Origin: Gemmata obscuriglobus
Lineage (GTDB): Bacteria > Planctomycetota > Planctomycetia > Gemmatales > Gemmataceae
NCBI RefSeq assembly: GCF_008065095.1
Contig: NZ_CP042911.1
Span: 3,630,001-3,662,000, forward strand
Length of the DNA: 32,000 nucleotides
Direction: 5' to 3'
Shown in pieces: positions 278 to 32,000 of this stretch (position 1 is the first letter of the stretch; each line of letters opens with the position of its first letter). A program made the position numbers and the translations under genes. The notes beneath the pieces are model-generated. The model saw only the letters and a program-made list of their open reading frames with translations. It did not search any database and was not told the origin of the DNA.

Positions 278-280
278 TTT

Positions 281-295
281 GGATACGGGGAGAAC
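281..295 (+). promoter_or_regulatory. shared 15-nt leader/SD block GGATACGGGGAGAAC
   Basis: Identical to 4166-4180; both lie between a palindrome and an ATG. Confidence 0.6.
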
Positions 296-302
296 GCCAC
301 CG

Positions 303-4143: not shown

Positions 4144-4159
4144 GTGGTCGCGCGACCAC
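4144..4159. repeat. palindrome copy (16/16)
   Basis: Intergenic, 25 nt before ATG 4185. Confidence 0.95.
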
Positions 4160-5171: not shown

Positions 5172-5187
5172 GTGGTCGCGCGACCAC
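5172..5187. repeat. palindrome copy (16/16; 20-bp palindrome 5170-5189)
   Basis: Immediately after TGA 5169-5171, 22 nt before GTG 5210. Confidence 0.95.
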
Positions 5188-8383: not shown

Positions 8384-8399
8384 GTGGTCGCGCGACCAC
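8384..8399. repeat. palindrome copy (16/16)
   Basis: 1 nt after TGA 8380-8382, 15 nt before ATG 8415. Confidence 0.95.
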
Positions 8400-13532: not shown

Positions 13533-13548
13533 ATGGCCGCGCGACCAC
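13533..13548. repeat. palindrome copy (14/16)
   Basis: atggccgcgcgaccac; 1 nt after TGA 13530-13532, 2 nt before the TACCATAA box. Confidence 0.75.
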
Positions 13549-17698: not shown

Positions 17699-17714
17699 CC
17701 GGTCGCGCGACCAC
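17699..17714. repeat. palindrome copy (14/16); left edge of low-GC island
   Basis: ccggtcgcgcgaccac; immediately after TGA 17696-17698. Confidence 0.8.
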
Positions 17715-19201: not shown

Positions 19202-19897
19202 ATGATGACCACACGCTGCCCGGGGTGTTCGGTTCTCGTTCGCGTGTCTGCGGAAGCAGCGGCGGCGGACCCTGCGTGTCCCCGATGCAGCTCTCCGTTA
19301 ATCTTGACCGTTGACGAGCCGAAGCCGATCACACGACCCAAATCAGCTCCTGTAGTGAACGAGCCCCCGCAGGAACGAGATTGGGAACCCGAACCGGAGC
19401 CGGAACAACCGGAACGGGAAGAGCCTGATCCCTACTACCGTCCGATTCGCCGGCGAAAAAAGAAGGGGCCACCGGTACTCGCCATTGCGACTGTTGGCGT
19501 TCTGTTCTTGGTTGCGATCGTGTCCGTTGTGGCGCTGCTGAACCGGGCCAAAAACGTTCAGGATCAGGCACGGGCAGCATCACAGAAGGGAACTGTTAAG
19601 AGCAGCCCACCGGTTCATTCCGAACGACCGATCGAAACACCAGTGCGGGCGACCGATTACAAGGACGAACTCGACCGCGAGGATTCGGAGCGGTTCGTAA
19701 CCCGAATACTCGCCCTTGCAATCGGTCTGCCGATCTACCTGCTTCCGACGGGCGTGGCGGTGTTTCGCCGGCACAACAATCTGGCTCCGATCGTGATAGT
19801 CAACGTGTTCCTCGGGCTCATTTTCGTCGGCTGGGTCGTCGCTTTGGCATGGTCCGTTTCCGACATGCGGCCCATGCGGACCGAGCGACCGGTTTGA
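19202..19897 (+). CDS. zinc-ribbon / transmembrane protein with C-terminal superinfection-immunity (T4 Imm-like, PF14373-type) domain
   Basis: N-terminus CPGC..CPRC. C-terminus IYLLPTGVAVFRRHNNLAPIVIVNVFLGLIFVGWVVALAWSV closely follows the Imm_superinfect pattern. Confidence 0.6.
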   Translation: MMTTRCPGCSVLVRVSAEAAAADPACPRCSSPLILTVDEPKPITRPKSAPVVNEPPQERDWEPEPEPEQPEREEPDPYYRPIRRRKKKGPPVLAIATVGVLFLVAIVSVVALLNRAKNVQDQARAASQKGTVKSSPPVHSERPIETPVRATDYKDELDREDSERFVTRILALAIGLPIYLLPTGVAVFRRHNNLAPIVIVNVFLGLIFVGWVVALAWSVSDMRPMRTERPV

Positions 19898-19914: not shown

Positions 19915-20397
19915 GTGGACGACGACACCGAACTCCTCATTCTGCGGCGACGGCGGCAACAGAAACAAGCCCGCCGACGCATGATCTTGCTGGCCTCACT
20001 CGCCGGCGTCGGGGCCGTACTCCTCCTCGCCATCGTCGTCGTCGCAGGACGAGCCGGAAGCGGGCGCGCGACCACAAACGTGTTGGGGGGGCCGTCCAAC
20101 CACGCCGAACTGGCCGATTTGCTGCGATCGAAGGGTCTCCAGGTCAGCTACGAATCTGCTGGCCCGTTGATTGATCGCCCGGAACGTCCGACGTCCATTT
20201 TCACGATCGATGTTGCAGGCAAGCGTGGTCTATTAATGGTGCATCTGAACAAGAGCGAATCGGCTGCACGCGAGCAAGTCGCCACGATGGGTGGCAACGG
20301 GTTCGCGTGCAGCCGATTCGCTCTTGAAGTGTGGATGGCAGATGAAGAGTCGAAGTCTGTATTCCTGCAAGTAAAACGAACACTGGGCGTCAACTGA
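19915..20397 (+). CDS. membrane-anchored hypothetical protein
   Basis: GTG 19915 lies 6 nt after GGAGGA, within ORF 19849..20397. One TM helix (ILLASLAGVGAVLLLAIVVVAG). Confidence 0.5.
   Translation: MDDDTELLILRRRRQQKQARRRMILLASLAGVGAVLLLAIVVVAGRAGSGRATTNVLGGPSNHAELADLLRSKGLQVSYESAGPLIDRPERPTSIFTIDVAGKRGLLMVHLNKSESAAREQVATMGGNGFACSRFALEVWMADEESKSVFLQVKRTLGVN
20060..20075. repeat. palindrome copy (14/16), in CDS
   Basis: gcgggcgcgcgaccac; read as SGRATT. Confidence 0.7.
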
Positions 20398-20407
20398 GAG
20401 GACGCCC
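20385..20407. terminator. hairpin spanning the convergent stops of genes 19915..20397 and 20390..21472
   Basis: gggcgtc-aactgagag-gacgccc; no U-tract. Confidence 0.25.
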
Positions 20408-21472
20408 GCCACTCGGGTACACGTGACCAGAGCGGCTGGCAGCGATCCGAGCTGTAGCGGCCATGCGGCCCAGCTCTGCGTCGATCCGAGCCGCCTCTCG
20501 CTCAATTCGCTCCGCATCAGCAGCAATCCCAGTAGACGCTGCCTTCTTGGATTCTTCTTCGCTCTTCTTTTTCTGCCTGTCGAGCAGCAGACCCATTACT
20601 CCGGCGGTCTTCAGTACGGGCGAGTTCGCAATTGCCTCTGTTGCGGCACTGATGATCCGCAGTGGGGGCACCAGGAGATCGTTCAGGAGAGCCAAAATCT
20701 CGTTCTTGGTGTTCGCCAAGACATTTTCTAAACCTTCGCTTGCGTCCTTGCGACGCTGTTCCGATTTTGCCAGTACGCCCGTCGAGCCCGCCTGAGCGTT
20801 GCCCTGCCGCCGGTCGCGCAACATCTCTTGGATGTCGCGCTGGGCAAGGACGGCCGCCATCGGTCCCGACACTTCCGCCAGCTTCCGGGCAGCGGCGATC
20901 TGCTCATCCGTAGCCTGGATGACAGCCTTTTTAAACTGGTTGAGGGCGTCCCCGACTGCGACAATGGCCCCGATCGGCCCGGCCAGACGGGCGAGACCCG
21001 CCGCCCCGCCAGTGAGTCCGCCCAGACCCGTCGGCCCCTTCCCACCCAGAAACTCGCCCACACCCTTAGTTGCGTTCGCGGACGCTTTACCGAACCGCGA
21101 GTTGTTCCAGAGCCTACGGAGGAACCCCGGCTCTTCTTCCTTTGGCGTTGTTGGCTTCGGCGGCCCTGGTAGTCCGCCCTGACCGGGCAGTCCGCCCACG
21201 ATCGACACCTGGAGCGGCTTTGGCCCCACGACGATCACCGATTGCGGGCGGTCGAACGCCGACACGACGCCGTTCTGCTCGCGGGCCGTGGTCGCGTGCT
21301 CGTGCTCCAGGGCGATCTCGCCCGGAAGAGCGATGATTGACTTGTGCAAGTCTTCGATCGCAAAAGACAGCGCCGCTTGGCTCGCGGCGGCCACCGTTTG
21401 CGACACCTTCGAGACATCCACCAAATCTCCCAGCGACTTGATGACATCATCGAGAGTCGAATCCCCGCCCAT
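20390..21472 (-). CDS. tape-measure-like protein (short, 360 aa)
   Basis: Minus-strand ATG 21472 preceded by AGGAGAAGG. Gly-rich hydrophobic segments (GLGGLTGGAAGLARLAGPIGAIVAVGD). Position after the chaperone. Confidence 0.5.
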   Translation of the reverse strand: MGGDSTLDDVIKSLGDLVDVSKVSQTVAAASQAALSFAIEDLHKSIIALPGEIALEHEHATTAREQNGVVSAFDRPQSVIVVGPKPLQVSIVGGLPGQGGLPGPPKPTTPKEEEPGFLRRLWNNSRFGKASANATKGVGEFLGGKGPTGLGGLTGGAAGLARLAGPIGAIVAVGDALNQFKKAVIQATDEQIAAARKLAEVSGPMAAVLAQRDIQEMLRDRRQGNAQAGSTGVLAKSEQRRKDASEGLENVLANTKNEILALLNDLLVPPLRIISAATEAIANSPVLKTAGVMGLLLDRQKKKSEEESKKAASTGIAADAERIEREAARIDAELGRMAATARIAASRSGHVYPSGGRPLS

Positions 21473-21483
21473 AACCTTCTCCT

Positions 21484-21499
21484 GTGGTCGCGCGACCAC
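21484..21499. repeat. palindrome copy (16/16)
   Basis: Between the GT-frame stop (21502-21504) and minus-strand ATG 21472. Confidence 0.95.
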
Positions 21500-21501
21500 C
21501 T

Positions 21502-22049
21502 TCAGCCCCGACCACTGATAGCCTCAACGACACATGCTGCGATGCTCTCGTAACGGGCCACCGCCGCTTCCTCTACTCGCTTGCGACCGGCCCAGACGCC
21601 GACGAAGGTGCGGTAGGGGAGTCGAGCGGGATCGAGGGCGAAGCCCGCGGCGGCGAGATCGAGAAAGGGCGGGCACTTGCGGCGAGTTGCTGCAAGAACG
21701 CCAGGAATCTGAACAGCACAAGCAGTCGCTCAGCTTCCGTCAGTCCGGCCGCCCCGTCCAGCGGTCGCAGCCCGAACATGGCGTCCGCGGCCTTGACGAG
21801 TGCCGTCACTGCGTCCGCTTTCTTCTGCTTCATGTCGGCGGCGACGGGCGTACCGGCCATTGCGGCGGCGAGGTCCGCCGGCACCTCGTGCGCGAGCACC
21901 CGGAGCCGATCCTCGTAGTCCGGGCACGATTCTTCGAGGACCCGGCCCGCAACCATCGGATCGGCCCGCCGTGTCGCGGTGCCGTCGAAGTACGCGAAGA
22001 TCTGCCGCTGGTGGTCACGCGACCACCAGCGGCGAAGGAAACCGAACAT
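21502..22049 (-). CDS. tail assembly chaperone, -1 frameshift fusion (GT-like), predicted
   Basis: The -1 frame is open from the slip site (21663-21669) to TGA (21504-21502). It has no start codon of its own. It encodes the protein-like sequence LDLAAAGFALDPARLPYRTFVGVWAGRKRVEEAAVARYESIAACVVEAISGRG. Confidence 0.5.
21573..22049 (-). CDS. tail assembly chaperone (G-like, 0-frame product)
   Basis: Lies between the tube-like and tape-measure-like genes. Contains an in-phase C_CCT_TTC slippery heptamer. Confidence 0.5.
   Translation of the reverse strand: MFGFLRRWWSRDHQRQIFAYFDGTATRRADPMVAGRVLEESCPDYEDRLRVLAHEVPADLAAAMAGTPVAADMKQKKADAVTALVKAADAMFGLRPLDGAAGLTEAERLLVLFRFLAFLQQLAASARPFSISPPRASPSIPLDSPTAPSSASGPVASE
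21663..21669 (-). other. -1 programmed frameshift slippery heptamer C_CCT_TTC
   Basis: + strand gaaaggg. The phase is exactly X_XXY_YYZ relative to the chaperone 0 frame (codons P128 F129). Confidence 0.55.
22011..22026. repeat. palindrome copy (15/16), in CDS
   Basis: gtggtcacgcgaccac; read as WWSRDH near the chaperone N-terminus. Confidence 0.85.
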
Positions 22050-22061
22050 GCTGCTACCTCG

Positions 22062-22568
22062 TTACAGGGCTCGGGTGTAGAGCGGGGTGTTGACCGCCGA
22101 AACGGTGGACGCGGGCGCGAACGGCCACGCGAAAAACGTGAGGTTCACCGGCTTGTTGCCCACGGACATCGGGATGCGGGCGTTCGGCCGGAGAACGCAG
22201 TGCAAGAACTTCCACGGGGTGTCATCGGACGCCGCAATGCCGATGGCGAAGTCGTCCCCGTTGGTTCCCACGAGTCGGCCGGGGGTGTTGAGCTGGCCTG
22301 CGGCCCCGCGGTTGCCCCGGTTGAGCACCTTGGTCAGGACGGCCGGGTCGATACTGATGAGCGGGCAGGTGATCGTCGCCACCTCCCCGAAGTCTTGAAG
22401 CTCGTGGGGCGTCATCTCACCGAACACGTCGGAGAAGATCTCCTTGTAGTTCTTGCTGATGTCGATATCGACCCCGCCTTGGGCGTACCCGAGCATTTCC
22501 TGCGCGGCGGCCGTGCCGGTGTAGGAATACACGATCGCCGGCCCCGTCCGCCAAAAACCGACCGCCAT
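22062..22568 (-). CDS. tail tube-like protein (by synteny)
   Basis: 168 aa, first gene of the minus-strand operon, upstream of the chaperone and tape-measure-like genes. Confidence 0.4.
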   Translation of the reverse strand: MAVGFWRTGPAIVYSYTGTAAAQEMLGYAQGGVDIDISKNYKEIFSDVFGEMTPHELQDFGEVATITCPLISIDPAVLTKVLNRGNRGAAGQLNTPGRLVGTNGDDFAIGIAASDDTPWKFLHCVLRPNARIPMSVGNKPVNLTFFAWPFAPASTVSAVNTPLYTRAL

Positions 22569-22598
22569 GGCAACGCCCCCAAAAATCTAACGGCTACT

Positions 22599-22606
22599 AT
22601 ATGGTA
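22599..22606 (-). promoter_or_regulatory. CGGCCA-TACCATAT box for the minus-strand tail operon
   Basis: The minus strand reads palindrome-cggcca-TACCATAT, about 30 nt before ATG 22568. Confidence 0.4.
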
Positions 22607-22612
22607 TGGCCG

Positions 22613-22628
22613 GTGGTCGCGCGACCAC
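22613..22628. repeat. palindrome copy (16/16) in divergent intergenic region
   Basis: 17 nt before ATG 22646; 6 nt from the minus-strand TACCATAT box. Confidence 0.95.
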
Positions 22629-22645
22629 TTCCGGAGGGGGCTCAA

Positions 22646-24532
22646 ATGTCGGTCATCGAATACAACTCGATCCGGTTCCACTTCGCCAAAACCGCGAGCG
22701 TCGAGTTCGATACGTCCCGCGACAAGAGTGGCGTGGACGTGATCGCCAACACGACCACGATCCGGGCTCGCGGCGTCGCCTCGCTCACCTCGCAGGTGCC
22801 GGGCGATTCAGCCGCCTTGCTGCCCACCATCCGACACATGCTGAACATGCCCCGGCGGCGACTCCTGTATCAAGTGGGGGGATACACCATCATCTCCCAA
22901 TCCGGGATGGACGCCCAGCTCGGGCCGACCCCGGTCAAGCCCGCCACCGTCGAGCCGGCGGGCAACGGCACCTTCTTCGTGGACGTGGCGTACAAGGTCA
23001 GCACCTACGACTGTGGCGAGGCGGCCTTGTCCGACCCCGTTACCTCCCTCCGCTGGACGCAGTCCGAGAGCTTCGACGACCGCTGGTTCTCCACCATCAC
23101 CACGTCCGGCACCCTGACCGTCCGGAGCGACCTGAACCAGTGCGCCGACAACTTCCGGCAGTTGGCGACGCCCCCGATCCTCGACGACTACCAACGCGTG
23201 TCCGCCAAGTACACCCTCGCACCCGACGGGCTCAGCCTGGACTTCGAGTTCACCGACCAAGAGAAATCGCTTCTCCCCCCGTACCCGGCCGTAGTTGCTG
23301 ATGGCGATTTTAACGTCATTTGCCCGCAGAACCATAAACGCACAGGAGTAGTCACAATCACGCTCGAAGGGGCAAAGGGGTGTAGTCGGAAAGACCTGAT
23401 GTTCGTTGGGCTGCGGATGGCAATCGCGAAACTCAAAGCCGAAGGATTCATCGACGGCTCCCCTCTCATGTGGGGCAATTTCTCGGAAAATCTGTTCCGG
23501 CCAGTAGTGAAGGTAAGTGTCCAGGCACTTCTCGCCACACTCGGTGGGACTGGTTTCGCTGGTGCGGCGGCGGCTAGTCTCGGCGCCGCCGCGGCCGGGA
23601 TGAATGGCCCGGCGGTGATGCGGAGCGTCGGCTACACGCCAGGAGTGCAGGAGGGCCGGTCGGGAATCGCCCCGCCGGTCCGTAAGCGGTTGCTCGGGCT
23701 CCTGGCCGCCGCGTTCCGAGACCCATGTGCGGCCAGCGAGGGCTTCACGGCCGAGCTGCGGAACGACCGTGGCGGATCGGGGTCCAACGCCGAACTCTCG
23801 ACCGGCGGTGCGTCACTCTCCACACCGCCCGCCGAACTCGTGACCGGAACGACCGGCGGGGCCGGCACATCCCCGATCAAGGACTACGCACCGTATGACC
23901 TGTACCGCATCCAGTTCGAGTACACGCAAGATACGGGGAAGCGGGTGATGCCGGGAACCGGCGTCGGTGACACGCCCCAGCGGGGCACGGCGGTGACCGT
24001 CCACGGGGGGCAAATGTTTCTGGAGGTAAGTTGGGCATGCCAGAGAACTGGCAGGCCGCCCCAGATCCCGTCGTTCTCCGTGAACGATCCGAACCTCGTT
24101 GCCATTGGCGGGACGTGCATCCCGGCCGAGATGCAGCTTTCCGCGGACGGGAGCGCCCCGACGTATCGCGTCGCCGGCCACTACATCTATGGCGTGTTGG
24201 ACCCGTCATTGGTGTCACTCACGGCCCCGGTGCCACCATATTTCAGCGATGGCGTGCTCACCACCGCACCGAACATCGCCAACTTTACGGCCCCCGTTGT
24301 CCGGACCGGGAGCAGCGGCTCCGGGTACAGCGGTGGGGGGGACTACGGAAGCAACATCTTCGTTCCTGAGCGCGAGCCCTCGCTTTCCGTCGAGCCCCCG
24401 TCGCAATTGGACCTGTTCGGCATCCCCGGCCCGATCGGCGGCGGGTTTCCGTTCGCCGGCCCTCCGGGTGGGTTGGGCTCTGGCGATACGGGGGGCGGCG
24501 GGCTCCTTCCCACAAACCCCGTGAACCCGTAG
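22646..24532 (+). CDS. large virion (tail/baseplate-like) protein, hypothetical
   Basis: ATG 22646 follows GGAGGGGG, within ORF 22601..24532. 628 aa with a Gly-rich C-terminus. Carries two sequences homologous to array spacers. Confidence 0.6.
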   Translation: MSVIEYNSIRFHFAKTASVEFDTSRDKSGVDVIANTTTIRARGVASLTSQVPGDSAALLPTIRHMLNMPRRRLLYQVGGYTIISQSGMDAQLGPTPVKPATVEPAGNGTFFVDVAYKVSTYDCGEAALSDPVTSLRWTQSESFDDRWFSTITTSGTLTVRSDLNQCADNFRQLATPPILDDYQRVSAKYTLAPDGLSLDFEFTDQEKSLLPPYPAVVADGDFNVICPQNHKRTGVVTITLEGAKGCSRKDLMFVGLRMAIAKLKAEGFIDGSPLMWGNFSENLFRPVVKVSVQALLATLGGTGFAGAAAASLGAAAAGMNGPAVMRSVGYTPGVQEGRSGIAPPVRKRLLGLLAAAFRDPCAASEGFTAELRNDRGGSGSNAELSTGGASLSTPPAELVTGTTGGAGTSPIKDYAPYDLYRIQFEYTQDTGKRVMPGTGVGDTPQRGTAVTVHGGQMFLEVSWACQRTGRPPQIPSFSVNDPNLVAIGGTCIPAEMQLSADGSAPTYRVAGHYIYGVLDPSLVSLTAPVPPYFSDGVLTTAPNIANFTAPVVRTGSSGSGYSGGGDYGSNIFVPEREPSLSVEPPSQLDLFGIPGPIGGGFPFAGPPGGLGSGDTGGGGLLPTNPVNP

Positions 24533-24541
24533 GATGGGTTT

Positions 24542-25081
24542 CCTTCAATTCGGCCACGGGCTTACACCCGTGGAGAGCGGCCCGGCTTCGGCACCAGACT
24601 CGCCAGTAAGGCGCTTCAATTCGGCCACGGCGTTCAACCCGTGGAGACTCGGTCAGCCCGGCCGTCCCGTCCAGCGGCTTCAACCCGCTTCAATTCGGCC
24701 ACGGGTGCAAACCCGTGGAGAGGGCTGGTGACGATCGAATCGCTTCCGAAACGTCGCTGCTTCAATTCGGCCACGGGGGTCAACCCGTGGAGAGGCGACG
24801 CCCCCGATCCTCGACGACTACCAGCGGACGCTTCAATTCGGCCACGGGTGCAAGCCCGTGGAGAGACCGCTCGCCGTTCGATCGTGGCATAATTCGAGCC
24901 TGCTTCAATTCGGCCACGGAGATCAGCCCGTGGAGACCTCCCCGATACGGGACTACGCACCGTATGACCTGTAGCTTCAATTCGGCCACGGGAATCAACC
25001 CGTGGAGGTGGCTTCTTCGCTACACGGTAACACTCCGCACACGCCACTTCAATTCGGCCACGGGTGCGAATCTGTGGGGAG
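24542..25081. CRISPR. orphan CRISPR-like array, 8 repeats / 7 spacers, no cas genes in window
   Basis: 36-nt repeats at 24542, 24613, 24687, 24759, 24830, 24902, 24974 and 25046. Consensus GCTTCAATTCGGCCACGG-N7-CCCGTGGAGAG. Spacers are 35, 38, 36, 35, 36, 36 and 36 nt. The last repeat is degenerate (TCTGTGGGGAG). Confidence 0.8.
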
Positions 25082-25125
25082 CTTACCCCCGCTTGCGATC
25101 CGCCGCAACATCCGATCCGCCCGGA

Positions 25126-25308
25126 TCACTCCCGTGCGAACACGCAGCACACGAGCGCGACGAGCGTCGTGAACGTGGCGATACACGCGGCCGAGAACAA
25201 CCCGTACAGACCGCTCAGGGCGACGATCGCCCCGTACATCGCACCGCCCAATCCCTGGCGGGCGACGCGGCGGGCACGGACCAGAAAACGCGGGATGCTG
25301 ATTCTCAC
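25126..25308 (-). CDS. small single-pass membrane protein (60 aa)
   Basis: Minus-strand GTG 25308 follows CGGAG and lies 24 nt downstream of a palindrome copy. TM segment GAIVALSGLYGLFSAACIATFTTLVALVCCVF. Confidence 0.45.
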   Translation of the reverse strand: MRISIPRFLVRARRVARQGLGGAMYGAIVALSGLYGLFSAACIATFTTLVALVCCVFARE

Positions 25309-25332
25309 AGTGGGCTCCGGGTTGGGGGCGAA

Positions 25333-25348
25333 GTGGTCGCGCGACCAC
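25333..25348. repeat. palindrome copy (16/16; 20-bp palindrome 25331-25350)
   Basis: Between minus-strand genes, 24 nt upstream of GTG 25308. Confidence 0.95.
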
Positions 25349-25349
25349 T

Positions 25350-25628
25350 TCAGTTGGTGGCGTTCTTCGCGGTGCAGATCGGGCACCCCGGATCGGGGCG
25401 GTGCGGGTGCCGCGGGCAACACGTCGTCACCCGCACCGCGAACGTGCGATACCGGCACTCCTCGCAGTCGCAGTCGCCCATCGGCACGTCCCCGCGGTGA
25501 CCGCACTCGTAACAGTACGTCGGCACGTTCGCGTACACGCGGTTCAGCGTCTTGCACCACGAACACGCGGTCCGGTGGATGGTGCCGCAGACCGGCTCGT
25601 CGGTCCGCAGGGCGTGACGGTTCGGCAT
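25350..25628 (-). CDS. Cys-rich zinc-binding small protein (92 aa)
   Basis: Minus-strand ATG 25628 lies 7 nt after AAGGAG. More than 12 Cys in CxxC-type pairs (CSWC, CYEC, CDCEEC, CPIC). Confidence 0.6.
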   Translation of the reverse strand: MPNRHALRTDEPVCGTIHRTACSWCKTLNRVYANVPTYCYECGHRGDVPMGDCDCEECRYRTFAVRVTTCCPRHPHRPDPGCPICTAKNATN

Positions 25629-25713
25629 GACGGGTCTCCTTGGTTCGGTCACGCGGATGGTATCGGTTGTTGCGGAATTCCGTAATGTCAGTGGCGAGTT
25701 GTTGAACTGAAGC

Positions 25714-25986
25714 TCAGACATTCAGTGGTCGCCAGTCGCCCCACTGGTTGTTGCGTTCCATCCAGGCCGATGCGACGAACCGGCCGTCTGTCGTCCGCAC
25801 CCACACCTCGGCCCGGGGCCGTTCCCACTCGTCGTTGGCCCCGATCCACACGATGCGCCAGCCGGGCGGCATGGGGCGGATGGGGGCCGGGAAACCGTCC
25901 GGAACCCAGAACGCGTCCGCGTAAACCGGTTGGTCGGCGGCGTCCAGTTCACGAATCCACTGAGGCACTTCGGAGCAGCGGGACAC
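25714..25986 (-). CDS. Trp-rich small hypothetical protein (90 aa)
   Basis: Minus-strand GTG 25986 lies 6 nt after GGAGG and 24 nt downstream of a palindrome. The upstream part of ORF 25714..26454 reads through the palindrome and is rejected. Confidence 0.5.
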   Translation of the reverse strand: MSRCSEVPQWIRELDAADQPVYADAFWVPDGFPAPIRPMPPGWRIVWIGANDEWERPRAEVWVRTTDGRFVASAWMERNNQWGDWRPLNV

Positions 25987-26010
25987 GGGCGTCCTCCGTT
26001 GGGGATGAAA

Positions 26011-26026
26011 GTGGTCGCGCGACCAC
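26011..26026. repeat. palindrome copy (16/16)
   Basis: Between minus-strand genes, 24 nt upstream of GTG 25986. Confidence 0.95.
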
Positions 26027-26027
26027 C

Positions 26028-26330
26028 TCAGAACGCCATCTCCACAACGTCCGCCCTCCGCTTCCGCCACTCGCCCCAACTCCGCGTCCGGTGCGACCAC
26101 GTGAGCGAGTACCGCCAGTCCCGGTCGTAATACACCACCCGCAGCGAGCCCGGCGGCGTCGCCATCACGCTCACGGGAACCAGACCCCGCGGCGGGCGGT
26201 TCCGGCCCCGCGGCAACCCGTCCACCCAACCGATACCCGTCAGGTGGATCTTCCCGTTCCGCATCTCGAACGGCACCGGAGACCACTTCAGCCGATTGAC
26301 CGATTTGCGAGAATTGAGTAACGTAGACAT
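26028..26330 (-). CDS. Trp-rich small hypothetical protein (100 aa), loosely similar to the preceding one
   Basis: ATG 26330 follows GAGGTG. The stop abuts palindrome 26011-26026. Confidence 0.55.
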   Translation of the reverse strand: MSTLLNSRKSVNRLKWSPVPFEMRNGKIHLTGIGWVDGLPRGRNRPPRGLVPVSVMATPPGSLRVVYYDRDWRYSLTWSHRTRSWGEWRKRRADVVEMAF

Positions 26331-26356
26331 CGAACACCTCTACACAGGGGTTCACC

Positions 26357-26389
26357 GGCCCCGGAGCGTGTATCAGACGCTCCGGGGCC
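26357..26389. promoter_or_regulatory. 13-bp-stem inverted repeat in the divergent regulatory gap
   Basis: ggccccggagcgt-gtatcag-acgctccggggcc. Confidence 0.4.
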
Positions 26390-26428
26390 AATTTCGTGTC
26401 GGGCAACCACCGCTCGACAGGGATACAA

Positions 26429-26469
26429 TAAGGCGACATGCCCTTGTTTGTCAAGGCGATGTCGCCTTA
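26429..26469. promoter_or_regulatory. operator-like inverted repeats upstream of the XRE gene
   Basis: TAAGGCGACAT (26429-26439) and ATGTCGCCTTA (26459-26469). Inner dyad AAGGCGA-TG-TCGCCTT at 26453-26468. TTGTCA at 26448-26453 is -35-like. Confidence 0.45.
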
Positions 26470-26487
26470 ATTCTTAGTAGGTGGGTT

Positions 26488-26757
26488 ATGGCCATCCCAG
26501 CCGTGGCGAAGAAAAACATCAGGACCGGCTTTGGGAAGCGACTCCGCGAGTTGCGGATCGACAAGAATTTGACTCAATCCCAGCTCGGTGAGCGTGCCGG
26601 GATGATGTACCAAGATGTAGCGAAACTCGAACGTGGCGAACGTGAGCCGATGTGGGCTACCGTCATTCGCTTGGCTGATGCTCTTGGCGTGCGGGCTGAT
26701 GACTTCCGCACGCTCGAAGATCCGTTGGCCGATCTCCCGGAGTTGCCGCTGGAGTGA
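26488..26757 (+). CDS. XRE/Cro-CI family HTH regulator
   Basis: In-frame ATG 26488. KRLRELRIDKNLTQSQLGERAGMMYQDVAKLERGEREP is a classic HTH_3 pattern. Confidence 0.8.
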   Translation: MAIPAVAKKNIRTGFGKRLRELRIDKNLTQSQLGERAGMMYQDVAKLERGEREPMWATVIRLADALGVRADDFRTLEDPLADLPELPLE

Positions 26758-26760
26758 GGA

Positions 26761-26776
26761 GCGGTCGCGCGACCAC
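26761..26776. repeat. palindrome copy (15/16)
   Basis: gcggtcgcgcgaccac; 3 nt after TGA 26755-26757. Confidence 0.9.
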
Positions 26777-26948
26777 TTCGCGTGGTGAACACATCGACAG
26801 CTTGCGTGGCGGGTTGCGGGTGCGATGATGTGGCGACCTCACGGGGTGCGTGGGGCGCGGCGTCTGCCCTCCGGTTGTCGTTTCTCGTACTAAGTGATAT
26901 CTAGACCGACTCCGGCCGACAGATTCCGGGGGCGATCCGAGTACCAGT

Positions 26949-27377
26949 ATGGCGATGCCTGCCGACCAACTGCCCGTTGGTGAGGGGCTGCTCCCGGACG
27001 GGTCGTGGGGGATGTTCTACGTCAGCCGGCCGGAGATGATCCGCCTGCGTGACAACGGCCCCCAGGAGAAGTACGAAGACGCACGCTTCCTCGAAGAGGC
27101 CGTTCGCGACCCGGATGCCATTTTCTTGGGGCTCCGGCGACCGAACCAGGACGACGCCTTGTGTTACTCTGTCTTCCTCACGTGTGACCCGGAGGAAGAT
27201 GACGAGGATTACAAGAAGCCCCCGCGGTACGGCCTCGCCTTCTTGGCGTTCGTGCGCGTCGCGAACATGGGTTGTGTAATATTCGATTGGGAGTGGCGGG
27301 AAGAAGACCCCGACCTCCCGGGCCACCCGAACAATTGGCGGAGAGACTTCGGAGAGCGTTTATGGTCCCGACCCTGA
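26949..27377 (+). CDS. hypothetical protein (cassette gene 1)
   Basis: 142-aa ORF with mixed codon bias. Overlaps the next gene by 16 nt. Confidence 0.5.
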   Translation: MAMPADQLPVGEGLLPDGSWGMFYVSRPEMIRLRDNGPQEKYEDARFLEEAVRDPDAIFLGLRRPNQDDALCYSVFLTCDPEEDDEDYKKPPRYGLAFLAFVRVANMGCVIFDWEWREEDPDLPGHPNNWRRDFGERLWSRP

Positions 27378-27748
27378 GAGAGTTCCTGAAGGCGAACCCC
27401 AGCCGGGGTTTCCGGTCGGCGCCCCAATATTTCTCTTCTGGCGACTACCTCACGTACTTCATTGAGGACGCCTCGCACTACGCGGAGCGGCTCGACGAGG
27501 TGCTGACCGTTTACCTTCACACCGAAACAAAGAACCTCGTCGGCGTGAAGGTGAAGGGCGTGCGGCACATCATGAAGACGGTCGATGAACTCGAACTCGT
27601 CGTGGACGGCGATTCGGTCAAGCTCGGTGTGTTCATCTTCGCAGGGGCCGCCGCCGACCGACCGGACCGGAAGGCCGACCGGTACGCCCAGCTCGTCAAG
27701 TTGAAGGACGTTCTGGTCAGCCGCAACGAACTGCCCGCAAAGGCTTGA
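27362..27748 (+). CDS. hypothetical protein (cassette gene 2)
   Basis: In-frame ATG 27362 within ORF 27272..27748. 128 aa. Confidence 0.5.
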   Translation: MVPTLREFLKANPSRGFRSAPQYFSSGDYLTYFIEDASHYAERLDEVLTVYLHTETKNLVGVKVKGVRHIMKTVDELELVVDGDSVKLGVFIFAGAAADRPDRKADRYAQLVKLKDVLVSRNELPAKA

Positions 27749-27799
27749 TCGGATCAAACAATTCTCGGATCGAACCCCGCGACCACTTCGGGGCCGGTC

Positions 27800-27991
27800 A
27801 TGCGTCGCTGGGTCGAACACCGCCTCTACGTTCTGGATCGCGTGACGGGCGACCCGTTCTGGGGCCGGGTGTTCGCGGGCGTGCTCGTTGCCGTCCTCGC
27901 GGCACTCCTGATTTACCGCGGGTACGTTCAACCCCGGGTGGGCGCGCGCCCACCCGATCGGGTTCCGGCGGCCGGGCCGGGCGTACAATAA
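27800..27991 (+). CDS. small membrane protein (63 aa)
   Basis: TM segment VFAGVLVAVLAALLIY. Contains the symmetric palindrome variant. Confidence 0.4.
   Translation: MRRWVEHRLYVLDRVTGDPFWGRVFAGVLVAVLAALLIYRGYVQPRVGARPPDRVPAAGPGVQ
27938..27953. repeat. symmetric palindrome variant GTGGGCGCGCGCCCAC, in CDS
   Basis: T5->G and A12->C together keep perfect dyad symmetry. Confidence 0.7.
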
Positions 27992-27995
27992 AAGC

Positions 27996-28226
27996 ATGGC
28001 GACGACGATCGAGGATGTGCTGGCGGTGCTGGCGAAGAACGCCAAGCGAATGAGGGGCGACCGGACGCAAGCCGACCTCGCGGAGGCGAGCGGTTTGACG
28101 GTCTCGCAGATCTCGCAGATCGAGAGCGGGAGGCCGGAGAACCCGCCGTCCGTGCGGACGCTCGTGGCCCTGGCGAACGGGCTCGGGGTGGACGTGTCGG
28201 AGCTGCTCAAGCGGGCGGCGGGGTAG
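27996..28226 (+). CDS. XRE family HTH regulator
   Basis: RMRGDRTQADLAEASGLTVSQISQIESGRPENP is a classic HTH_3 pattern. 76 aa. Confidence 0.8.
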   Translation: MATTIEDVLAVLAKNAKRMRGDRTQADLAEASGLTVSQISQIESGRPENPPSVRTLVALANGLGVDVSELLKRAAG

Positions 28227-28527
28227 CATCCCTCTTTTGGCGTTCGACCCATTTGTCGATCCGGACCGTGTTGCCGTCCGCGTCGTAAACGTACCCGCCG
28301 CGGGCAACGGCCCCCGGCTTGTAAACCGGATCGTGCCCGCCTTGGGTGCGTTCGGAGATCGGCTCGTGCAGCCCCGCCGCGATCATTTCCAGCCGCACCG
28401 ACTTCACCACCGGCCGCGAACACCCGCACTCCTTCGCCACGTCCCGGTCCGACAGCGACTGGTTCTTCTTCGACCGCAGGAACTTCCGCACCCGCAGTCT
28501 CAGCCCCAGATTCTTGTGACCCGCCAT
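28207..28527 (-). CDS. putative HTH DNA-binding protein (106 aa)
   Basis: Minus-strand ATG 28527 follows GAGGAG. SLSDRDVAKECGCSRPVVKSVR is HTH-like. Convergent with the XRE gene and overlaps it by 20 nt. Confidence 0.5.
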   Translation of the reverse strand: MAGHKNLGLRLRVRKFLRSKKNQSLSDRDVAKECGCSRPVVKSVRLEMIAAGLHEPISERTQGGHDPVYKPGAVARGGYVYDADGNTVRIDKWVERQKRDATPPPA

Positions 28528-28540
28528 CGGAACTCCTCGA

Positions 28541-28556
28541 CTGGTCGCGCGGCCAC
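28541..28556. repeat. palindrome copy (14/16)
   Basis: ctggtcgcgcggccac; 13 nt upstream of minus-strand ATG 28527. Confidence 0.75.
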
Positions 28557-28645
28557 CTCCAACCGTATTCGATGGCACGATGAGCACATTGAACCACATT
28601 GGGCACACTTCCAGTAAGTGAACGGGCGTGTAAGTCGGGCGGAAA

Positions 28646-28661
28646 GTGGTCGCGCGGCCAC
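28646..28661. repeat. palindrome copy (15/16)
   Basis: gtggtcgcgcggccac; in the long non-coding gap. Confidence 0.85.
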
Positions 28662-29164
28662 CGCTCGGGAGGAAAATTCGCGAGCGGTCGGGGCAGGGTG
28701 CCTACTGTAATTTGCCGGCCGCGTGTCGGCCGAACAGCCTCAGAGTGGCAAACCGTGTGCGTCCCGAACGGGCCAATAGTGGGCATCGGGGCGACCCGTT
28801 TCAGTGGTGGCTCGGACCGGCCAATCGACAGCTTAACGGCTGCACGACGCCGGGTTAACCGGCCGGGGCAACCCGGGGCGTCAACGGACCGCCCCCGCAA
28901 CCGAAAGGTTGGGCACTTCACCTGAGACGTGAGGGGCTTGCTGACGGAACCCGCGATGCGTCCGGACGGTCCGACGCGGCGGCCGACTTTCTCGTAACGC
29001 CGAGGCACCGGTCGCTGACCGGTGGCCGGGACGGACGGGCACGTCCATTCCGGACATTGCGGGGCGTTTAACAAATACTGCGGGGGATAAGAGGGGTCAT
29101 TGTGTGCCCGCTCACGTCGTCCGCAGGTGCCGCTGACTAACGCCAGAGGAAGGAAGGGTGCCGT

Positions 29165-29464
29165 ATGCCGCGTCCGGCCGACCGCAAACCGAAGGCGAAG
29201 AACGCGAAGCGGGTGGACCCGACGAAAACGGTCCTGACCGCGACGGACGGCGAAGCCCTGCCGGTCGCGAGCGGGCTGGGGCTGTACCTGCTGCTCGAGG
29301 GGCCGGTGGTGAACCGCCGGTGGCGGGTGTACGACCGGGCGACCGGGGCGTTCCTCGCACGAGCGGACCCGCAAGGTGGTCGCGCGACCGGCCCGCGGAT
29401 CGGCACCCTGACCGGCGGCTGGCGGGAGCTGCTCGCGGAGATCCGGAAGCGAACCGGAGCCTGA
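29165..29464 (+). CDS. hypothetical basic protein
   Basis: ATG 29165 follows GGAAGGAAGGG. 99 aa. Confidence 0.5.
   Translation: MPRPADRKPKAKNAKRVDPTKTVLTATDGEALPVASGLGLYLLLEGPVVNRRWRVYDRATGAFLARADPQGGRATGPRIGTLTGGWRELLAEIRKRTGA
29376..29391. repeat. palindrome copy (14/16), in CDS
   Basis: gtggtcgcgcgaccgg; read as GGRATG. Confidence 0.7.
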
Positions 29465-29488
29465 CTTCTCTGGCGTTCCTGACGTAAG

Positions 29489-29504
29489 GTGGTCGCGCGA
29501 CCAC
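29489..29504. repeat. palindrome copy (16/16)
   Basis: Intergenic; 6 nt before the TACCATAA box. Confidence 0.95.
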
Positions 29505-29510
29505 CGGCCC

Positions 29511-29518
29511 TACCATAA
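29511..29518 (+). promoter_or_regulatory. CGGCCC-TACCATAA box
   Basis: palindrome-cggccc-TACCATAA, 33 nt before ATG 29552. Confidence 0.4.
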
Positions 29519-29551
29519 ACGTGAGTCGTTTGAACCCGAGCGAGGACCGAC

Positions 29552-29755
29552 ATGGCGGTTACCTACACGGTCGAGCAGAAGAAGCTGGCGAAGATCGACG
29601 GGCAGAGCCTCGCGACGATCGCGGTGGCGGGCATCGAGTTCCAGGGGCCGGTTTCGGAGGACGAGCGGGACGCTCTGCTCCGGTGGCTCCTCGACTTCCA
29701 GCAGCGACGCCGGGCCAACGCAGCGAATCCGAAGGGCACCCCGCTGGCGGAATAA
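29552..29755 (+). CDS. hypothetical 67-aa protein
   Basis: ATG 29552 lies 5 nt after GAGGA. High GC3, in contrast to the overlapping ORF 29521..30156. Confidence 0.6.
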   Translation: MAVTYTVEQKKLAKIDGQSLATIAVAGIEFQGPVSEDERDALLRWLLDFQQRRRANAANPKGTPLAE

Positions 29756-29757
29756 AA

Positions 29758-29773
29758 GTGGTCGCGCGACCAC
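29758..29773. repeat. palindrome copy (16/16)
   Basis: 2 nt after TAA 29753-29755, 33 nt before GTG 29807. Confidence 0.95.
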
Positions 29774-29806
29774 CAGCAGCCTCCACCCACGAATCGGAGC
29801 GACACC

Positions 29807-30076
29807 GTGAGCGATTACCCGCCCGTCACAGAAGAAACGGTCGAGACCGAAGAAGCCGAATGCGGGTGCAACGAGAAGTTCGACAAGCTCGGCGAGATCA
29901 TCGAACTGGTAACGGCGACGTGGGCGTGCCCCGTGTGCGGGTCCGTGACGTTCGAGAAGGGGCCGGGCGACCACCCGCCGACGGTCCCGTACCCGTGGGC
30001 CGGGGCGATCATGCGGACGGTCGTGACCTTGGCCGTGATCGTGACGTTCGCCGCGATCTACCTGACCGCGAAGTGA
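29807..30076 (+). CDS. zinc-ribbon, C-terminally membrane-anchored small protein
   Basis: GTG 29807 lies 7 nt after GGAG. CGC..CPVC cysteines and TM segment TVVTLAVIVTFAAIYL. Confidence 0.55.
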   Translation: MSDYPPVTEETVETEEAECGCNEKFDKLGEIIELVTATWACPVCGSVTFEKGPGDHPPTVPYPWAGAIMRTVVTLAVIVTFAAIYLTAK

Positions 30077-30077
30077 G

Positions 30078-30093
30078 GTGGCCGCGCGACCAC
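30078..30093. repeat. palindrome copy (15/16)
   Basis: gtggccgcgcgaccac; 17 nt before ATG 30111. Confidence 0.9.
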
Positions 30094-30110
30094 TTTTCGG
30101 GAGGTCACGG

Positions 30111-30641
30111 ATGGCGGGCGGGCGGGAGTGGACGACGGGCGAGGAGGCCGAACTGAAACGGCTCCTCGCTGCCGGAACGAAGCTGGCGACCGTCGCCAAA
30201 CGGCTGAACCGGTCCTACTCGGCGGTGGCCCAGCGGGCGTTCCGGGTGTCGGGCCGGGAGCGGCTGCCCCGGCTCCACAAGGCCGGTGAGTTGGAGGAGC
30301 GGGTGCGGTCGCTTTCGGTTCCCGGCGTTCCTGACGCGGTGGTCGCGGGCATCCTGGGCGTGACCCGGCAGACCGTTCTGAAGACCCGCCAGCGGCTCGG
30401 TATCCCCCAGAGCGTACCGCCGAACGGGAAACTGCCCCGCGACCCGGCCAAGCGGTCGGACCTGTCGATCGCCGCGAAGGTGCTGTGGCTGTACTCGGGC
30501 GTCGGGCGGTCCGATGTGGTGATTGCGAAGCGGATCGGCGTGTCGAGAACGACCGTCCGCGATTACCGGCTCAAATTCAACCTGCCGGCGTTGGGCGAAC
30601 TGAAGTGTGGTCGCGCGACCACTACGGAGGTGCAGAAATGA
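30111..30641 (+). CDS. multi-HTH (Myb/SANT-like) DNA-binding protein
   Basis: ATG 30111 follows GGGAGG. WTTGEEAELKRLLAAGTKLATVAKRLNRSYSAVAQRA plus two further HTH-like segments. Confidence 0.5.
   Translation: MAGGREWTTGEEAELKRLLAAGTKLATVAKRLNRSYSAVAQRAFRVSGRERLPRLHKAGELEERVRSLSVPGVPDAVVAGILGVTRQTVLKTRQRLGIPQSVPPNGKLPRDPAKRSDLSIAAKVLWLYSGVGRSDVVIAKRIGVSRTTVRDYRLKFNLPALGELKCGRATTTEVQK
30607..30622. repeat. palindrome copy (16/16)
   Basis: In the last codons of the HTH gene (CGRATT), 15 nt before thyX ATG 30638. Confidence 0.95.
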
Positions 30642-31567
30642 AAGTCATCACCGAGCCTTCGGTTTACGTCTTGGGCCGACAAACGGTCGATCAGGCCGAA
30701 CTCGATCGATTTTTGGTCGACCACGGCGTGAGCTGGGAGAGTGACAGCGAGGTCGCTGGCGAAGTGCTCACGGAAACGGCGGGACGCGTCTGTTATATGT
30801 CGTTCGCGAAGCCGCGACCGGGCGGCAACAGCGCGTACCTGACCCACATCAAGGAAGTGGGGCACGGGAGCGTGCTGGAGCACGCGGTGTGGAACCTGCT
30901 CCTCACCGGGGTGTCGCGGTCGCTCACGCACGAGCTGGTGCGGCACCGCGCCGGGTTCGGGTTCAGCCAGCTCTCGCAGCGGTACGTGGACGAGTCGGTG
31001 GCCGAGTACGTGGAGCCCGACATCATCGCCCGCGACCCCGAGTTGCACGCGATCTGGCTCGAATCGGTGAAGCAGTCGCACGCGGCGTACATGAAGCTCG
31101 CCGACGCGCTCAGCGCGAAGCTAACGAACACGTTCGGTCCGTGCGACAACCCGAACTGTGAGCGTGGTTACCAAGCGGACCACCTGAAGGTTCGGACCTA
31201 TGTGGCTTGCCCCACATGCAAAGGGAGTCCCAGTAAGGCATGGTACGCTGCGCCGCTCGGTCGGTTTGTGCCGGGATGGGAGAACGGTCTGACCGCGACT
31301 GATCGCCGCAAGGCCGCGCGTCAGGCCGCGCGGAGCGTGCTGCCGAACGCCACCGAGACCAAGATCTTCATCACCGCGAACGCCCGTGCTCTGCGGCACT
31401 TCATGGAGCAGCGTGGATCGGTCCACGCCGAACCGGAGATTCGGAAGCTCTCGTGCGCGATCCTTGACGCGCTCCAGAAAGACGCCCCCAACCTCTTCAG
31501 TGACTACCAGAAGGTGCCCCTTCCCGACGGCACGTTTGAACTGGTGACGCAGTTCAAGAAGGTGTGA
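30638..31567 (+). CDS. thyX: flavin-dependent thymidylate synthase ThyX with an internal Cys4 insertion
   Basis: ATG 30638 (ATGA overlap, ACGGAGG SD). ThyX signature LTHELVRHRAGFGFSQLSQRY (RHRxxSxxxxSxR). 309 aa. Confidence 0.85.
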   Translation: MKVITEPSVYVLGRQTVDQAELDRFLVDHGVSWESDSEVAGEVLTETAGRVCYMSFAKPRPGGNSAYLTHIKEVGHGSVLEHAVWNLLLTGVSRSLTHELVRHRAGFGFSQLSQRYVDESVAEYVEPDIIARDPELHAIWLESVKQSHAAYMKLADALSAKLTNTFGPCDNPNCERGYQADHLKVRTYVACPTCKGSPSKAWYAAPLGRFVPGWENGLTATDRRKAARQAARSVLPNATETKIFITANARALRHFMEQRGSVHAEPEIRKLSCAILDALQKDAPNLFSDYQKVPLPDGTFELVTQFKKV

Positions 31568-31578
31568 GGAGCCGCAGC

Positions 31579-31884
31579 ATGAGCCAGAAGTCCAAGTCCC
31601 CACAAGAGGTGGCGAGAGAGCAAACGCTCGCGATCTCGGAACACCTGTACCTCGCCGGCCGCGACGGGCTGACCGCCGAGCAACTGGCCGGCGCGGCCAA
31701 GTTTCCGGTCGAGATCGTTCGAAAGCGGCTCCACGCCGGCGGCCCGAACTGTGCGAACCCCGAGTGGCGGCGGTTCACGTTCGACCGGCTGACGAACCGC
31801 TGGGCACTGACGCTCGGTGGGGAGCAAGTTTTGAAGAGAAGTGGTCGCGCGACCACCCGCCCGGGGCGGCGGCGGATCGCCTGA
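31579..31884 (+). CDS. hypothetical (winged-helix-like?) protein
   Basis: ATG 31579 lies 8 nt after GGAG. 101 aa. A palindrome copy lies in its last 15 codons. Confidence 0.5.
   Translation: MSQKSKSPQEVAREQTLAISEHLYLAGRDGLTAEQLAGAAKFPVEIVRKRLHAGGPNCANPEWRRFTFDRLTNRWALTLGGEQVLKRSGRATTRPGRRRIA
31841..31856. repeat. palindrome copy (16/16)
   Basis: In the last codons of gene 31579..31884 (SGRATT). Confidence 0.95.
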
Positions 31885-31890
31885 CCGGTC

Positions 31891-31898
31891 TACCATAA
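31891..31898 (+). promoter_or_regulatory. TACCATAA box in front of an apparently leaderless gene
   Basis: TACCATAAatcATG; same 5-nt spacing as at 13551; no SD. Confidence 0.45.
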
Positions 31899-31901
31899 AT
31901 C

Positions 31902-32000
31902 ATGAGCGTTGCACTGACCGGAACCGGTGGGTTCTTCACCCGCTTGGGGAAGCTGGGGAAGCTGCTCTACGCCGTCAACGGCGACCAGTCCGGGTACGCC
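31902..32000 (+). CDS. hypothetical protein, N-terminal fragment (runs off window)
   Basis: ATG 31902 lies 5 nt after the TACCATAA box with no SD. Open to the window end: MSVALTGTGGFFTRLGKLGKLLYAVNGDQSGYA. Confidence 0.45.
   Translation, partial: MSVALTGTGGFFTRLGKLGKLLYAVNGDQSGYA

Follow-up and report, generated by a model that had tools for sequence, protein, structure and literature searches.

Why would a prophage carry, beside one of its own genes, a CRISPR spacer that matches this gene almost, and not quite, perfectly? The question is raised by a stretch of 32,000 nucleotides (nt) of the Gemmata obscuriglobus chromosome (NZ_CP042911.1, positions 3,630,001 to 3,662,000; the whole of it is referred to here as the window), in which a small CRISPR array adjoins a gene for a phage protein of 628 amino acids (aa). 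The array is probably a prophage-borne type I-G array without cas genes that serves the CRISPR-mediated exclusion of superinfecting related phages. The match of 31 positions out of 35 between its spacer 4 and the 628-aa gene would then be the trace of a rival's orthologue, not a piece of this genome. The features on which this reading first depends are as follows.

24542..25081, minus strand in functional orientation: CRISPR array, 8 repeats (36 nt) with 7 spacers (35-38 nt) between them
24795..24829, minus strand: spacer 4, reading GTCCGCTGGTAGTCGTCGAGGATCGGGGGCGTCGC in the sense of its CRISPR RNA (crRNA)
22646..24532, plus strand: gene for the 628-aa phage protein P0001, targeted by spacers 4 and 6 and conserved in Gemmataceae prophages
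23165..23199, plus strand: the prophage's own near-protospacer for spacer 4, within the 628-aa gene (ATPPILDDYQRV), 31/35 identical

Spacer 4 and its self near-match

A sequence-only reading of this DNA had described spacer 4 as a copy of the adjacent gene diverged at silent sites. Both sequences were found to be as quoted there, with 31/35 identities in the same sense, the first 29 of them contiguous, and mismatches at plus-strand spacer positions 30, 33, 34 and 35. The 29-mer is present at only two places, the spacer and the 628-aa gene. No match at three or fewer mismatches was obtained in any of 100 dinucleotide-preserving shuffles, and spacers lacking a real match still showed 13-14 mismatches in their best alignments to the window.

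The codon changes given in the same reading could likewise be confirmed: with 23165 as a first codon position, two of them are silent (CAA>CAG and CGC>CGG), and one, GTG>AC(G), exchanges Val for Thr. The mismatches are clustered at one spacer end as it had stated, and in the functional minus orientation this is the seed end, proximal to the protospacer-adjacent motif (PAM). Its suggestion that the spacer differs from the gene as an orthologue would is backed by the codon-aware differences of spacers 4, 6 and 2, as well as by spacer 1, by genuine type I-G repeats, and by the TTN found at the sites homologous to spacers 1 and 2.

Matches of the other spacers

Spacer 4 was the only spacer covered by the sequence-only reading; matches of spacers 6, 2 and 1 were added here.

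24938..24973, minus strand: spacer 6
23869..23904, plus strand: the prophage's own near-protospacer for spacer 6, within the 628-aa gene (SPIKDYAPYDL), 32/36 identical
24649..24686, minus strand: spacer 2
21736..21773, minus strand: the prophage's own near-protospacer for spacer 2, within the 158-aa gene (GLRPLDGAAGLT, against GLKPLDGTAGLT encoded by the spacer), 31/38 identical
21573..22049, minus strand: gene for the 158-aa protein targeted by spacer 2, identical to G. obscuriglobus GobsT_31050
24578..24612, minus strand: spacer 1, encoding RPGFGTRLASKA, a tail-tube allele of other Gemmataceae (pro)phages
22062..22568, minus strand: gene for the 168-aa tail tube protein; spacer 1 stems from the orthologous gene of relatives
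24723..24758, minus strand: spacer 3, no target found
24866..24901, minus strand: spacer 5, no target found
25010..25045, minus strand: spacer 7, no target found

The codon pattern of spacer 2 fits the minus-strand frame of the 158-aa gene. A 402-aa open reading frame on the plus strand (21534-22742) was considered as its target and rejected, as gene calls and synteny in five relatives both give the minus-strand gene. For spacer 1 the best self alignment left 18 of 35 positions mismatched, i.e. there is no self match, and at least one spacer is therefore not a decayed copy of this genome. Against the orthologous 169-aa tail-tube gene of related prophages, spacer 1 showed 7-10 mismatches; the peptide that it encodes occurs exactly in the homologous tail-tube protein P0077, and the window's own tail-tube protein reads RPNARIPMSVGN at the same site.

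Over the complete codons of the three self near-matches (spacers 4, 6 and 2), 12 base differences in nine codons give three amino-acid changes (K>R, R>K and A>T). Random substitutions gave so few amino-acid changes in 0.15% of 100,000 simulations (P = 0.0015). Taken together with spacer 1, this scarcity of amino-acid changes shows the spacers to be pieces of functional orthologues and not decayed or duplicated copies of the neighbouring genes. At least four of the seven derive from the tail genes of related Gemmataceae phages, namely those for the tail tube, the 158-aa and the 628-aa proteins. Spacer 1 and the three self near-matches map to a single 4.1-kb module that makes up 10.7% of the genome, and placement of four of seven spacers there has P = 0.0035 under a uniform model, a figure possibly subject to detection bias. 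The self near-matches all lie within 3 kb of the array.

Repeat anatomy and type I-G assignment

Read on the minus strand, the array repeat consists of CTCT, CCACGGG, a 6-nt loop, CCCGTGG, CCGA and ATTGAAGC. This agrees exactly with the published type I-G design, in which a 36-nt repeat forms a 7-bp stem, Csb2 cuts 4 nt beyond it, the handle has 8 nt and the PAM is TTN (PMC9638904). The window array shares with such arrays (Thioalkalivibrio sulfidiphilus effector, PMC9638904) the 36-nt repeat, 7-bp stem, 4-nt linker and 8-nt handle; its spacers are 35-38 nt long, its likely PAM, judged from spacers 1 and 2, is TTN, and its repeat family occurs beside I-G operons elsewhere. It differs from them in being located in a prophage, without an adjacent cas operon or a leader, and in having heterogeneous repeats.

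The repeat family forms uniform arrays, with about 12 to more than 100 repeats, in genomes of Gemmataceae and other Planctomycetota. At three loci (L025, L021 and L010) it was found directly downstream of cas3g-cas8g2-cas7g-csb2-cas4g/cas1g; the three genomes with these operons are Singulisphaera, a Planctomycetota metagenome-assembled genome (MAG) and a Gemmataceae MAG. The window array was assigned a functional minus orientation because its repeat ends in ATTGAAGC in the direction of those cas operons. Its repeats are identical to no sampled host repeat.

As the crRNAs of spacers 4 and 6 would be antisense to the 628-aa mRNA, a type III, RNA-targeting system was also considered. It was rejected on account of the association of the repeat family with I-G operons and of the opposite polarity of spacers 1 and 2 relative to their genes.

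No two of the eight repeats are identical in the repeat alignment. They vary at 13 columns: the first four bases, the loop together with the seventh stem pair that closes it, the last base and, in repeat R8 only, one more base of the 5' arm. A further 17 columns, covering the 3' stem arm, the linker and the handle, are invariant in 8/8 repeats, and their avoidance by variable columns has P = 1.2e-5. Folding predicted the hairpin in seven of the eight repeats.

Loop sequences fall into sub-families, YTGAYY in R2, R4, R6 and R7, YTYGCA in R3, R5 and R8, and TGTAAG in R1, of which the first two partly alternate along 24542-25081. This pattern may reflect assembly of the array from more than one source array instead of drift in place.

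PAM and avoidance of self-targeting

Every site homologous to spacer 1 or spacer 2 is flanked on the PAM side by TTG, TTA or TTC, against a background TT frequency of 0.03-0.04. These two spacers point to TTN as the PAM, which agrees with type I-G. By this measure the prophage's own sites would be disarmed in different ways. In the self copy of spacer 4, crRNA positions 1, 2, 3 and 6 are mismatched, and the PAM-side flank is GAC, not TTN. For spacer 6, crRNA positions 1-24 are perfectly matched and mismatches occur at 25, 26, 27 and 36; the flank here is CGG, again not TTN. The self copy of spacer 2 does possess a PAM, TTC, and is mismatched at crRNA positions 4, 7, 8, 9, 22, 30 and 36. None of the prophage's own sites thus combines an intact PAM with an intact seed. 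These disarmed sites are consistent with an exclusion function and are not independent proof of it, because a divergence of 14% would disarm most sites by chance.

If the PAM is TTN, the sequences of the true targets can be predicted in part. The target of spacer 4 would read Q-R-T-(K/N), ending in TACCAGCGGAC followed directly by NAA, and that of spacer 6 would read D-L-Y-(K/N), ending in GACCTGTA followed directly by NAA. For spacer 2 the predicted target is a TTC-flanked sequence beginning with GGGTTGAAGCCG, and for spacer 1 a sequence ending in AGTAAGGC followed directly by NAA. Both of the changes predicted for the targets of spacers 4 and 6 fall at residues that are variable among 628-aa homologues.

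Setting, probable transcription and proposed mechanism

The array sits between the tail genes and the regulatory region of the prophage, 5.6 kb inside phage contigs of 38.6 kb (Logan). An array-less relative (L035) shows synteny with the window that runs on at both sides of the array, with a 145-aa gene at the array's site. Because synteny holds on both sides while a different gene stands in its place, the array is accessory cargo, carried at a variable position of the phage genome.

Sequences upstream of the array in its functional orientation suggest how it could be transcribed.

25126..26330, minus strand: four-gene operon (100, 90, 92 and 86 aa) reading into the array and ending 44 nt before the first repeat
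26425..26454, minus strand: sigma-70-like promoter match upstream of the operon (TTGACA-18-TATTGT), a consensus match only

The promoter-like site is divergent from a Cro/CI-type helix-turn-helix gene (26488-26757), and no terminator-like site was found between the four-gene operon and the array. The operon is the probable source of array transcription. In the mechanism that we propose, the array would form the tail of this upstream operon's minus-strand transcript. Judging from the repeat anatomy, cleavage by host Csb2 (a Cas5-Cas6 fusion) would take place in each repeat 4 nt past the 7-bp hairpin, and the resulting crRNAs, carrying the 8-nt handle ATTGAAGC, would load into the host I-G Cascade. 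The lysogen would then destroy incoming relatives that have matching tail-module alleles beside a TTN PAM. Its own alleles would escape through seed differences (spacers 4 and 2), absence of the PAM (spacers 4 and 6) or full divergence (spacer 1).

Small arrays of the same I-G repeat family were also encountered elsewhere. Two IMG/VR viral contigs carry arrays of 2-3 repeats (L001, 1-210; L002, 1190-1300), and a Fimbriiglobus MAG (L009, 1467-1796) carries a 5-repeat array in which the repeats are likewise all different. In the fetched DNA, the arrays of L001, L002 and L009 gave no cross matches, and no self-matching spacers were found in these or the other small arrays of the family (L005, L007, L012, L026 and L027). 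I-G mini-arrays may be common among planctomycete phages.

Alternative explanations

Several results weigh against an active role in exclusion. Searches of IMG/VR, the JGI metagenomes and the fetched loci yielded a perfect protospacer for none of the spacers, and nothing in them was better than 7 mismatches. The searches used a degenerate spacer 4 pattern (JGI metagenomes and IMG/VR), cores of spacers 6, 5 and 7 (IMG/VR), protein-seeded locus searches in IMG/VR and JGI, and a scan of the fetched loci. The 35/35, PAM-flanked match to spacer 4 by which the sequence-only reading was to be checked in relatives was thus missing from both IMG/VR and the JGI metagenomes, although this search had little power. 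Spacers 3, 5 and 7 gave no DNA target, and a six-frame BLOSUM peptide scan with them gave noise. The hairpin of R8, the first and leader-proximal repeat, was broken in folding. Neither flank of the array resembles the conserved leader blocks common to L025 and L021, and no cas genes were detected in the window by Pfam, PHROG or precomputed domain hits, with about 7.9 kb of the prophage lying outside the window. Finally, a genome-contig scan for the repeat family returned no G. obscuriglobus locus, the window's own array included; either the region was masked, or the representative G. obscuriglobus genome is without the array.

Much of this is what would be seen if the array were a relic, once functional or captured from a host array by recombination and now carried as an inert passenger: its eight repeats all differ where host arrays are uniform, one hairpin is lost, leader and perfect target were not found, and no other array of the family was returned from G. 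obscuriglobus. Free decay does not, however, predict the 17 invariant positions in the 3' stem arm, linker and handle (P = 1.2e-5), which selection for Csb2 processing does predict, and the spacers have kept canonical lengths of 35-38 nt. The missing perfect targets are to be expected because the 628-aa protein shares no more than 63% identity with its nearest homologue sampled (BLASTP). A relic is, in our judgement, unlikely. We give still less weight to a role as an RNA decoy or anti-CRISPR, in which the repeats would shield the phage from host I-G immunity, either by titrating Csb2 and Cas7 or through competition with the crRNAs of the host, while the spacers would be incidental. Phage repeat mimics without cas genes are known (PMC10651486; bioRxiv 10.1101/2024.10.29.618823), and a single transcript of the array could present eight conserved Csb2-type hairpins. 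RNA anti-CRISPRs (Racrs) are, however, described as solitary repeat units, whereas the window array has seven full-length spacers, at least four of them from phage tail genes and with PAM-consistent flanks. In addition, no PAM-flanked partial matches to the cas loci or leaders of the fetched host loci were found, only chance seeds of 10-11 nt, mostly without a PAM. Decoy and exclusion roles could be mutually compatible. A regulatory, crRNA-like role was likewise set aside, since the seed-plus-PAM search of the fetched host loci gave chance matches only.

The window is G. obscuriglobus chromosomal DNA and the matches lie close to the array, so that one might also suppose a host chromosomal array that abuts and targets the prophage, or a local duplication of gene fragments. 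A host array is difficult to reconcile with phage synteny on both sides in L035, with a position well inside a 38.6-kb phage contig, and with the failure to find cas genes and a leader. Duplication cannot explain three separate fragments of exactly spacer length, each framed by repeats, together with spacer 1, which has no local source; every self copy, moreover, is without an intact PAM plus seed. Of all the explanations, this one appears to us the least probable. An array that would borrow host I-G machinery for exclusion of related phages is accordingly the reading that we retain as probable.

The prophage and its tail module

The window belongs to a tailed prophage of about 38.6 kb in the chromosome of G. 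obscuriglobus UQM 2246. Its phage genes encode an SNF2 helicase-methylase and a sliding clamp, together with TerL, a Mu-like portal of 1365 aa, a scaffold and an adaptor, and positions 20319-32000 are 100% identical to UQM 2246 contig ABGO01000025.1. Several sequencing runs independently gave contigs of 38,620-38,621 nt, every one of which stops at window position 30709, 72 nt inside thyX (30638-31567), whereas the chromosome continues. This points to an attachment site in thyX at its 5' end (30638-30709), with excised copies possibly present in cultures. The left prophage end falls beyond the window.

The conserved module comprises genes of about 360, 158 and 168 aa on one strand and the divergent 628-aa gene; its remaining member is listed here.

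20390..21472, minus strand: gene for the 360-aa protein, fourth gene of the conserved module

A model of the 168-aa protein (predicted local distance difference test score, pLDDT, 78) matched many tail-tube structures with a Foldseek probability of 1.00. The sequence-only reading had called the 628-aa gene a virion gene. This is plausible given the tail-tube fold of the neighbouring 168-aa protein; for the 628-aa protein itself the only similarity is to phage proteins that are uncharacterised, and its assignment as probably a tail component rests on its neighbours and on this similarity. Nothing was found for its function in Pfam or PHROGs, there was no significant match in the PDB and none among GenBank phages, and its AlphaFold 2 model (pLDDT 62) matched uncharacterised phage proteins only in BFVD.

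Just upstream of the tail module lies a superinfection-immunity gene (19202-19897, plus strand; PF14373; phrog_1039, E = 1e-92), which is conserved in L030. It may represent a second, protein-based exclusion system beside the CRISPR-based one. In Gemmata sp. G18 the four-gene tail module occurs twice, on two contigs (L033 and L034), with identical 631-aa proteins. Each copy is a few kb from an integrase, and there is no portal or terminase within 10 kb upstream; the two may represent satellite-like elements or remnants that have the module in common.

Two other genes of the prophage were noted. The portal gene (8415-12512, plus strand) is very large at 1365 aa, with an N-terminal Mu-type portal domain and a full-length phrog_113 match, and a gene at 279-2561 (plus strand) encodes a fusion of an SNF2 helicase with an N6/N4 DNA methylase. 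Neither product has a close relative among GenBank phages. A 16-bp perfect palindrome, GTGGTCGCGCGACCAC, was also observed in 38 copies at two or fewer mismatches, 20 of them exact, compared with 0.12 expected from shuffles. Its positions include 262-277, 2562-2577, 4144-4159, 5172-5187, 8384-8399, 13533-13548, 17699-17714, 22613-22628, 25333-25348 and 26761-26776, and most copies lie a few bases from gene starts or stops. The palindrome could act in termination or attenuation, in RNA processing or as a site to which a protein binds.

Relation to known systems and significance

Mini-arrays carried by viruses are known to have spacers that match related viruses, often in genes near the array, with the carrier's own loci mutated (PMC6858448; PMC11656645, which reviews the mini-arrays of phages and prophages). 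Like those of the Saccharolobus portogloboviruses SPV1 and SPV2 (Medvedeva et al. 2019, PMC6858448), the window array is located inside a viral genome without cas genes and has repeats of the CRISPR type of the host clade, here the I-G family of Gemmataceae and Planctomycetota. Its spacers likewise appear to derive from related viruses and to target genes close to the array, and the carrier's orthologous sites have point differences that would prevent self-targeting. It resembles the bacteriophage mini-arrays discussed in PMC6858448 in having no leader. It differs from virus-borne mini-arrays in having seven spacers instead of one or two, a difference of size and not of kind, in repeats that match no sampled host repeat exactly and in 8/8 cases differ in the hairpin loop, and in being of type I-G and in a Planctomycetota prophage. 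In further contrast to them, no reciprocal partner phage or perfect target was sampled for the window array. No such array was reported for type I-G or for Planctomycetota in the literature searched, a search that was not exhaustive.

With Racrs and phage crRNA-like regulators, the array has in common that repeat RNAs encoded by a phage without cas genes would engage host Cas proteins. Those RNAs differ in being solitary or degenerate units whose 'spacers' are non-guiding or match host promoters in part (PMC10651486; bioRxiv 10.1101/2024.10.29.618823); the window array has full-length spacers, apparently from phage structural genes.

A prophage that turns borrowed host machinery against its rivals is an already established phenomenon, and what is gained here is scope and detail. 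What makes the array notable is that it is long, has repeats diversified in their loops, is of type I-G and resides in a cultivable planctomycete. Type I-G is called the least-understood type I subtype (PMC9638904), and the eight naturally varied repeats map what the type tolerates: the loop and the first four bases change, and the stem, linker and handle do not. The type strain of G. obscuriglobus can be cultivated, and genetic tools for it have been described (PMC4910669). The closeness of spacer and target that was noted, and left unexplained, for archaeal viruses gains a bacterial case.

A further and more doubtful idea, which we raise tentatively, is that the array and the adjoining tail genes form a co-inherited 'immunity cassette', with spacers against rival alleles and the resistant alleles in cis. 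Long-term selection is suggested because the loops have drifted while the stem, the cleavage linker and the handle have stayed frozen. If the cassette were real, recombination with a rival could not part the weapon from its antidote, and competing tail modules of Gemmataceae phages would be pushed apart. The array would then have been kept up by selection over a long time without turnover by Cas1-Cas2, as a stable, inherited set of guides and not as an adaptive one.

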